A DNA stretch of 64,000 bases from the NCBI RefSeq assembly GCF_003334405.1, contig NZ_QOWM01000006.1; one strand, 5' to 3'. The first letter of the stretch is position 1, and every line of letters begins with the position of its first letter. Origin of the DNA: Escherichia coli (lineage in GTDB: Bacteria > Pseudomonadota > Gammaproteobacteria > Enterobacterales > Enterobacteriaceae). A program made the position numbers and the translations under genes. Positions 42,954 to 43,808 of the stretch are shown one piece after another. Under the pieces are notes generated by a model. It saw only the letters and a list, made by a program, of their open reading frames with translations. It had not been told where the DNA came from and made no database searches.

Positions 42954-43766
42954 CTACACCAGTTCCAGCATCGTTACTTCCGGGCGGCAGTTCAGACGCA
43001 AACCATACAAACTGCCCACGCCACGGGTTGTGTAGATGTGTCTTTCGCCAAAGGCATTTAATCCGGCGACGTAACGTTTATCTTCGACAGGGGCAAAAGG
43101 TTCACCAACCAACGGTACGCGCAGTTGCCCGCCGTGAGTATGGCCGCACAGCATCAGATCCCAGGGTTCATCACGCATGACTTCTTTGCTGTCGGGATTA
43201 TGCGCCAGCACCAGTCTTGGCAGATTGGCTTCGCTGGCGGGAGGCGGTTTGCATTGTCCGGCCCATAAGTCACCAGTGCCTACCAGTTCGAATTGCCTGT
43301 TCGGCGTGGCGATCACCGTAGCCTGGTTAAACAACACCGTGATGCCCGCTGATTTCAACGTCTCGCCAATTAAGTGATTTTTTTCTGTACCAACAGGGCG
43401 ATCGTGGTTGCCGAAGCAGGCAAACGTCGGCGCACATTCGGCAAGGGGGGAGAGTACGTCACTAAACGCCGAAAAATTCAGCGACATATCAAATAATACG
43501 TAATCGCCGCCCAGTAATATCAAATCGGGCTTTTGTTCTATGCCAAGAGCAATCGCGTCAGAAATCAGGCTTAAAGGAACAAAACGAGAGTAATGGAGAT
43601 CGGCCAGAAAAAGAATTTTGAATGGTGCTGCGTTGTCTTTAAAAAAGGCGAGGCGGTGACGGATTAATTCAAACCAGCCTGGCTCACAGTAATGCATATA
43701 ACCGAAACCTGAGCTCGTGGCTATCGTCGCGGCAGTAGCCTGCAAAAATCGGCGGCGTGAAATCAT
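42954..43766 (-). CDS. yaeI: calcineurin-like metallophosphoesterase, Tat-signal
   Basis: 270-aa ORF; twin-arginine motif SRRRFLQA; metallophosphatase motifs GDLHY, GNHD, GHTH. Confidence 0.9.
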   Translation of the reverse strand: MISRRRFLQATAATIATSSGFGYMHYCEPGWFELIRHRLAFFKDNAAPFKILFLADLHYSRFVPLSLISDAIALGIEQKPDLILLGGDYVLFDMSLNFSAFSDVLSPLAECAPTFACFGNHDRPVGTEKNHLIGETLKSAGITVLFNQATVIATPNRQFELVGTGDLWAGQCKPPPASEANLPRLVLAHNPDSKEVMRDEPWDLMLCGHTHGGQLRVPLVGEPFAPVEDKRYVAGLNAFGERHIYTTRGVGSLYGLRLNCRPEVTMLELV

Positions 43767-43779
43767 CGCTCATCCCTGC

Positions 43780-43808
43780 AAAAAAATCGGGCAGCGTCGT
43801 GCTGCCCG
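43780..43808 (-). terminator. intrinsic terminator 3' of dapD
   Basis: GCTGCCCG (43801-43808) / CGGGCAGC (43788-43795), 5-nt loop, then A-run 43780-43786 on plus strand (U-tract on minus strand). Confidence 0.65.

Follow-up and report, generated by a model that had tools for sequence, protein, structure and literature searches.

yaeI of Escherichia coli: an accessory phosphodiesterase gene that abuts the dapD terminator and is probably transcribed by read-through

The E. coli gene yaeI starts directly behind the terminator of dapD; of a two-gene cassette that was inserted between dapD and yaeH, it is the half that survives. Taken together, the evidence makes it probable that this cassette-derived accessory gene has no promoter of its own, is transcribed by read-through of the dapD terminator, and encodes a phosphodiesterase exported by the Tat system. 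The locus could be explained as follows. First, a cassette of two genes, yaeI and a gene of ~240 aa, would have taken the place of the sequence between dapD and yaeH in an ancestor of Escherichia and a few relatives. Second, with the ribosome-binding site of yaeI beginning immediately past the U-tract of what appears to be an efficient dapD terminator in K-12, yaeI mRNA would come only from polymerases that start upstream (at the dapD promoter, possibly at glnD, or at a weak start inside dapD) and fail to terminate. Third, YaeI would be kept at a low level set by read-through, and its transcript would continue into yaeH. Fourth, the product would be a binuclear metallophosphoesterase (MPE) of a YkuE/LpxG-related family, which a twin-arginine leader would send, folded and metal-loaded, through TatABC to the periplasmic side, where it would act as a phosphodiesterase. 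The layout, that of a textbook low-expression gene behind a terminator, is of little importance in itself; public annotation or published datasets already contain yaeI, its twin-arginine leader, the dapD terminator and the transcription start site (TSS) inside dapD. The modest added value is evolutionary, namely that the tight abutment of terminator and gene can be explained by insertion of a cassette followed by deletions.

Arrangement of the locus

Positions refer to the window, the whole 64,000-nt stretch of E. coli DNA that was analyzed. RefSeq annotation places glnD, dapD, yaeI and yaeH on its minus strand and cdaR and degP on its plus strand. The 2.4-kb stretch around yaeI is 100% identical to E. 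coli K-12 MG1655, where RefSeq names the gene "phosphodiesterase YaeI" (100% identical to the window ORF). An MG1655 coordinate is a window position plus 141303; this offset was confirmed with the flank of a Term-seq 3' end, the MG1655 position of yaeI (184257-185069) and the gene coordinates in Kim 2012. The main features, in the direction of transcription, are these:

43820..44644, minus strand: dapD coding sequence (tetrahydrodipicolinate N-succinyltransferase), with its own TSS at MG1655 185976(-), window 44673
43788..43808, minus strand: terminator hairpin CGGGCAGC-ACGAC-GCTGCCCG, 8 bp with 7 G-C pairs and a 5-nt loop, from a scan and folding
43780..43786, minus strand: T7 tract, after one A, holding the Term-seq 3' end at 43784
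43767..43779, minus strand: 13-nt gap gcagggatgagcg, with a Shine-Dalgarno (SD)-like AGGGA at 43777-43773, 6 nt ahead of the ATG
42954..43766, minus strand: yaeI coding sequence, 270 aa, ATG start, 531 bits against NCBIfam NF008460
42406..42792, minus strand: yaeH coding sequence (DUF3461), downstream of yaeI

Between the dapD stop codon (43822-43820) and the terminator hairpin lie 11 nt. As the initial annotation had noted, yaeI starts 14 positions past the U-tract, counting from the T at 43780 to the A at 43766, with 13 nt between them. The ATG at 43766-43764 is the first possible start codon, and a longer ORF is excluded by an in-frame TGA two codons upstream, at 43772-43770.

The dapD terminator

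The dapD terminator is an intrinsic terminator that works in vivo, with the RNA 3' end inside its U-tract. Its hairpin is the strongest of nine terminator-like sites in 2.6 kb (shuffled sequences lead to an expectation of 2.9 +/- 1.7), and RNA folding gives the predicted structure. Term-seq data (Adams 2021, PMC7815308, supplementary file 1) contain a "primary" 3' end of dapD at MG1655 185087(-), window 43784. That file, which spans LB at OD 0.4, LB at OD 2.0 and M63 glucose, contains dapD three times, and two of its rows have very high read counts. The position of this 3' end within the T-tract, together with the rank of the hairpin relative to shuffled sequences, shows that the terminator is not a chance match. 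The proposed terminator at 43780-43808, abutting yaeI, was thus correctly placed.

The hairpin stem is conserved in all Escherichia alleles examined, with or without yaeI, and one loop base differs in strains GPEC60 and GF43. Likewise, every Escherichia yaeI allele examined preserves the succession of hairpin, T-tract (T5-T9), 13-14-nt gap and ATG, as does one locus labelled Salmonella enterica (L089), despite 13-19% nucleotide divergence in yaeI itself. Hence, that the start codon abuts the terminator is a feature of the cassette that was inserted. Superficieibacter-type loci have a hairpin without a U-tract and a 26-nt gap before yaeI, which likewise leaves no room for a promoter.

A ribosome that terminates near a hairpin can interfere with the folding of that hairpin. 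Given the short distance between the dapD stop codon and the terminator, a terminating ribosome could disturb folding here and favor some read-through. The position of the U-tract directly before the SD sequence is another feature that may favor read-through into yaeI, or its translation. A second hairpin that would occlude the yaeI SD sequence and AUG was considered as a conserved regulator and rejected; it is found in K-12 only and is missing in the L006, E. albertii and GPEC60 alleles.

Transcription of yaeI

Two published start sites flank yaeI:

43880..43892, minus strand: TSS inside dapD at 43880 (Kim 2012) and a -10-like hexamer, TATCGT, at 43892-43887 (scan)
42890, minus strand: yaeH TSS, MG1655 184193(-), 8 reads (Kim 2012), in the yaeI–yaeH spacer

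Kim 2012 (PLoS Genet, PMC3415461, supplementary file 2) assigned to yaeI a TSS at MG1655 185183(-), window 43880, with 22 reads, which implies a 114-nt 5' UTR. For comparison, the same study has 36 reads for the dapD TSS at 185976, 145 reads for the glnD TSS at 188783, and 8 reads for the yaeH TSS at 184193. A lenient sigma70 scan independently predicts the start at 43880 from a weak promoter, TATCGT, with a score of 7/12. The start lies inside dapD, 58 nt before the dapD stop codon and 72 nt upstream of the hairpin, so transcripts that begin there must also cross the terminator. The initial annotation had suggested that yaeI depends either on read-through from dapD–glnD or on a promoter embedded in dapD. 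The embedded start exists, but it offers no way around the terminator. Every known route to yaeI mRNA therefore crosses a working terminator, which makes read-through the most economical explanation. Thus, yaeI expression most likely depends on terminator read-through; we infer this source of the mRNA from the layout of the locus and from the published RNA ends.

A rival explanation gives yaeI a promoter of its own, which would overlap either the terminator or the 13-nt gap, or else a leaderless mRNA, with transcription independent of dapD. Shallow TSS data can miss weak, condition-specific or alternative-sigma promoters, and the Kim 2012 dataset is shallow enough (22 reads at 43880) that a weak start in the 13-nt gap could have escaped it. 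In addition, one paper includes yaeI among rpoE-regulon genes (PMC5105897). However, the lenient scan gave no sigma70-like site above 5/12 that would start transcription within or after the hairpin, a promoter scan found no sigmaE-like site at yaeI, and the Kim 2012 table has no mapped TSS between the hairpin and the yaeI ATG. Moreover, genomic SELEX (PMC3946193) found an RpoD site only downstream of yaeI, in the yaeI–yaeH spacer, and assigned it to yaeH. Membership of yaeI in the rpoE regulon was rejected; the literature search turned up no other paper that backs it, the claim looks weakly founded, and the mention may be a typo for another yae gene. It is thus most improbable that yaeI is transcribed from a promoter of its own. 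The expectation that the junction leaves almost no room for a separate promoter is borne out, and the independent start downstream of the terminator that would have contradicted it is absent from the published TSS map.

Under the preferred read-through explanation, the yaeI transcript would run on into yaeH, because the Term-seq file lists no RNA 3' end between the two genes; the next minus-strand 3' end is at 42346. The SMRT-Cappable-seq supplements have no entry for yaeI or dapD.

Three further observations concern the dapD end of the junction. First, the hexamer TATCGT was considered as an element selected for yaeI expression, and this was rejected, as it is conserved in E. coli with or without yaeI and lies at synonymous sites. 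Second, the TSS at 43880 and the 3' end at 43784 would give a ~97-nt minus-strand RNA from the dapD 3' end; this RNA would have the architecture of a 3'UTR-derived small RNA. An Rfam search of 42300-44900 gave no family match, the sole hit being a sub-threshold one to sroE (21 bits vs 51). Third, a Rho-dependent termination region has been listed at ~43861 on the plus strand (MG1655 185164+; Adams 2021, supplementary file 2), antisense to dapD, which points to a plus-strand transcript that runs antisense across the yaeI/dapD junction.

A calcineurin-like phosphoesterase

The identity of YaeI as a calcineurin-like phosphoesterase, first proposed from its sequence, is upheld by every metallophosphoesterase motif, by Pfam and by the predicted fold. 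Three parts of the gene matter here:

43701..43766, minus strand: predicted Tat signal peptide, codons 1-22, MISRRRFLQATAATIATSSGFG, from Pfam, NCBIfam and homolog alignment
43760-43740, minus strand: S-R-R-R-F-L-Q motif inside the leader
43131..43622, minus strand: calcineurin-like metallophosphoesterase domain, residues 49-212, from Pfam, alignment, the AF2 model and Foldseek

YaeI matches Pfam Metallophos (PF00149) with E=7.2e-13 and the NCBIfam equivalog model for phosphodiesterase YaeI (NF008460) with 531.3 bits, against a cutoff of 188, over residues 1-270. The motifs are D56-x-H58, G87-D88, G119-N-H-D122, H189 and G208-H-T-H211. Across 26 homologs, D56, H58, G87-D88, G119-N120-H121-D122, H189 and H211 are invariant, and H209 is nearly so. 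An AF2 model (pLDDT 85.9, pTM 0.83) is confident for residues ~31-270 and leaves the N-terminal helix and linker as a low-confidence segment separate from the core. When this model was compared with the PDB by Foldseek, all 24 hits with E<=1e-3 were MPE-fold proteins, including Mre11, GpdQ, UshA, Rv0805, GAP50, PptH and the polymerase epsilon B-subunit. By sequence, phmmer found no PDB relative of YaeI, and a profile search gave weak matches to Mre11/SbcD only, over motifs I-III; the YaeI/YkuE/LpxG branch is without a solved structure. Database names for YaeI echo a reported phosphodiesterase activity on bis-pNPP. The nearest relatives of YaeI beyond dapD–yaeI–yaeH loci are mostly in Verrucomicrobiota.

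The twin-arginine leader and the location of YaeI

The N-terminus of YaeI, S3-R4-R5-R6-F7-L8-Q9, fits the S/T-R-R-x-F-L-K-type consensus; R4 and R5 do not vary among the same 26 homologs (identity down to 46%), and L8 hardly does. The motif thus fits the proposal of a twin-arginine leader. Dedicated models give borderline scores: 16.5 bits vs a cutoff of 16.7 for the TIGR01409 Tat-signal HMM, and a marginal E=0.0039 for Pfam TAT_signal. With a mean Kyte-Doolittle value of 0.77, the h-region, ATAATIATSSGFG, shows the low hydrophobicity usual for Tat signals. A clear AxA cleavage site is missing from the leader, where small residues at positions 17-22 could take that role. The related YkuE of Bacillus subtilis has a cleavable signal and has been proven by experiment to be a Tat substrate (PMC5449189, PMC6708511), and a short E. 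coli homologue has been aligned with it (Tooke et al., PMC5449189). The conserved twin-arginine leader of YaeI most likely directs export via Tat, which would place the enzyme in the periplasm. A screen of E. coli Tat leader peptides is said to have included YaeI.

Alternatively, the N-terminal segment could be an uncleaved membrane anchor that holds YaeI at the cytoplasmic face, where it might serve, for example, as a back-up UDP-2,3-diacylglucosamine hydrolase. In Chlamydia trachomatis LpxG, whose site of action must be the cytoplasm, a transmembrane helix lies at the N-terminus (PMC4807358). Against the LpxG model (NCBIfam NF033458), YaeI gives a match with E=3.7e-35; it also lacks an evident AxA site, and PMC7414163 quotes a database annotation that files YaeI under lipid A biosynthesis. 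However, assignment of YaeI to the LpxG equivalog was rejected, as the match is a partial alignment of 121.8 bits vs a cutoff of 350. In addition, the family keeps the RR pair without exception, a stable anchor would need a more hydrophobic h-region than that of YaeI, and YkuE is exported by Tat and cleaved. An LpxG-like back-up role also sits poorly with K-12, which has yaeI and yet cannot do without lpxH. A cytoplasmic, anchored YaeI is thus quite unlikely.

Export to the periplasmic side also bears on how YaeI is labelled. Because a Tat leader implies a topology opposite to that of LpxG, the label "lipid A biosynthesis" is doubtful. The Tn-seq screen in PMC7414163 found yaeI insertions among mutants enriched by phage T7 and made the link to LPS via the database label; this link, too, looks weakly founded.

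Distribution and history of the cassette

yaeI is an accessory gene, lost from most E. coli strains. Of 5426 complete E. coli genomes, 2085 have it and 62% do not; in 2080 genomes, the ORF spans 80% or more of the length of the K-12 gene. A single-copy filler of ~138-140 nt takes the place of yaeI in 3339 of the 5426. A pan-genome study found yaeI to be enriched in phylogroup A.

The history of the locus can be read from a longer arrangement, dapD–yaeI–x–yaeH, which occurs in one E. coli genome, GF43 (L095), and in L089. Here, x encodes a protein of 236-244 aa (x236 in GF43, x244 in L089) that has no Pfam or NCBIfam match. Relative to GF43, the K-12 allele has a ~700-nt deletion of x that leaves its end in place:

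42912..42942, minus strand: 3' remnant (~31 nt, ...RIKQVIF, stop) of the second cassette gene, x236/x244, mapped against GF43 and L089

The filler allele is a deletion, which extends from the T-tract (between 43785 and 43784) to near the 3' end of x. Mapped against GF43, the 3' part of the filler is a frameshifted, decayed remnant of x, and the filler resembles neither yaeI nor any other locus outside the 3' end of x236. Thus, yaeI occupies a three-state locus in E. coli, with both genes, yaeI only, or a remnant only. Because of these three states, results obtained for YaeI in K-12 cannot be extended to the majority of E. coli strains; the three-state locus also weakens the lipid A biosynthesis label.

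Across Enterobacterales in general, dapD has a different terminator of its own and then yaeH, within ~115-125 nt. In an 80-species sample of the order, yaeI lies between dapD and yaeH only in Escherichia (E. coli and E. albertii) and Superficieibacter. Beyond that sample, the same placement was found in L089 and in a metagenomic contig (L086), whose YaeI and dapD–yaeI junction resemble those of Superficieibacter. The possibility that x244 of L089 and x261, the gene after yaeI in a more distant locus (L088), form one partner family was rejected, as the two are unrelated.

Several alleles have features of their own. In the filler allele (L002 ~935-1110, and L003), the dapD T-tract is interrupted, GATTGCTTTCTGG, and the dapD terminator is probably weaker there. 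On the strand opposite dapD, the same allele has a strong SD sequence, GGGGGGAGGAAGA, and an ATG that opens a 23-codon ORF running through the hairpin; this ORF may have arisen by chance or may encode a small protein. In two strains, yaeI has been broken by separate events. In E. coli strain 1506 (NZ_CP059288.1), an IS1 element splits the leader-encoding part of yaeI from the rest. In strain EC0026B (L005), yaeI is truncated after ~180 codons, and genes for an integrase and a DUF3644 protein replace its 3' end and yaeH. Truncated YaeI protein clusters are common in databases.

Terminators before other yaeI homologs

The regions upstream of yaeI-family genes were sampled in ~10 independent genomic contexts, a small and uncontrolled set, of which three have a canonical hairpin and T-tract no more than 35 nt before the start (Escherichia/L089; L088; L092/L096), three have a hairpin without a T-tract, two have operon-like overlaps or very short gaps, and two have nothing convincing. 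In L088 (2925-3003), the hairpin CACGGGCGG...TCTGCCCG with its T8 lies 3 nt before the ATG and resembles the K-12 hairpin; the yaeI homolog there is 58% identical and sits at an unrelated locus, behind a yebC-family gene. In the Verrucomicrobia-like L092 and L096, a perfect terminator lies 20-27 nt before the start of the homolog, and a conserved basic protein of ~140 aa is encoded upstream (65% identical between the two). The different dapD terminator of other Enterobacterales, together with these terminators before distant homologs, hints that the hairpin and U-tract are not the ancestral dapD terminator and instead arrived with the yaeI cassette as a built-in throttle, one that travels with, or is repeatedly selected before, yaeI-family genes. 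We regard this joint reading as rather improbable. If it is true, a potentially harmful exported phosphodiesterase would be held at read-through levels.

Selection on yaeI

Alleles of yaeI with a dS of 0.4-0.7 have a dN/dS of 0.11-0.17, which indicates long-term purifying selection on YaeI, at a level of constraint 10-30 times weaker than that on dapD and yaeH. YaeI is functional where present, given this ratio, the intact motifs and the confident MPE-fold model. In the same strain pairs (K-12, GF43 and GPEC60 [L004]), dS is 0.46-0.74 for yaeI vs 0.15-0.24 for dapD, a synonymous divergence 3-5 times that of dapD; this points to allelic lineages that are old, or that came in from other Escherichia clades.

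A different explanation of the locus is that yaeI is effectively silent in K-12, fully insulated by the terminator, and is a decaying accessory remnant nearing loss. Indeed, the terminator looks strong, so yaeI expression may be negligible and its contribution in K-12 marginal. A silent gene would fit the strong Term-seq 3' end, the absence of yaeI from 3339 of 5426 genomes, the IS1 disruption and the integrase-side truncation, the many truncated clusters, the weak constraint relative to the neighboring genes, and the fact that the partner gene is already deleted in K-12. However, it is at odds with the purifying selection on yaeI, with an ORF of at least 80% length in 2080 genomes, and with catalytic and signal motifs that are all intact. 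Moreover, we know of no intrinsic terminator that is 100% efficient. Silence of yaeI in K-12 is thus unlikely, although it deserves to be taken seriously, and read-through at a low level is preferred.

Comparison with known systems

How does yaeI compare with systems that are better understood? First, YkuE of B. subtilis belongs to the same metallophosphoesterase family as YaeI and, like it, has a twin-arginine signal directly before the catalytic domain. YkuE is exported by Tat in a folded, metal-containing state and ends up bound to the cell wall of a Gram-positive bacterium, whereas YaeI would be periplasmic. Second, LpxG of C. trachomatis resembles YaeI in being calcineurin-like, in its DXH, GDXXD, GNHD and GHXH motifs, and in having an N-terminal hydrophobic segment. 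Unlike YaeI, which its predicted Tat leader would put outside, LpxG must face the cytoplasm, and E. coli uses LpxH, not LpxG, for the UDP-2,3-diacylglucosamine hydrolase step. Third, GpdQ, Rv0805, Mre11/SbcD and the N-domain of UshA share with YaeI the MPE fold (Foldseek E of 4e-7 to 5e-4) and, as predicted for YaeI, a dinuclear metal site, at 10-16% identity and with TM-scores of ~0.43-0.55. Fourth, the position of yaeI recalls that of dnaG, which lies behind terminator T1 in the rpsU-dnaG-rpoD operon; the low abundance of its product is set by terminator leakage, and read-through has been demonstrated experimentally. Like dnaG, yaeI comes right after a functional terminator, with no promoter separating the two, and we infer that it, too, is reached by read-through. 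Unlike dnaG, a conserved member of its operon, yaeI is accessory and was inserted horizontally.
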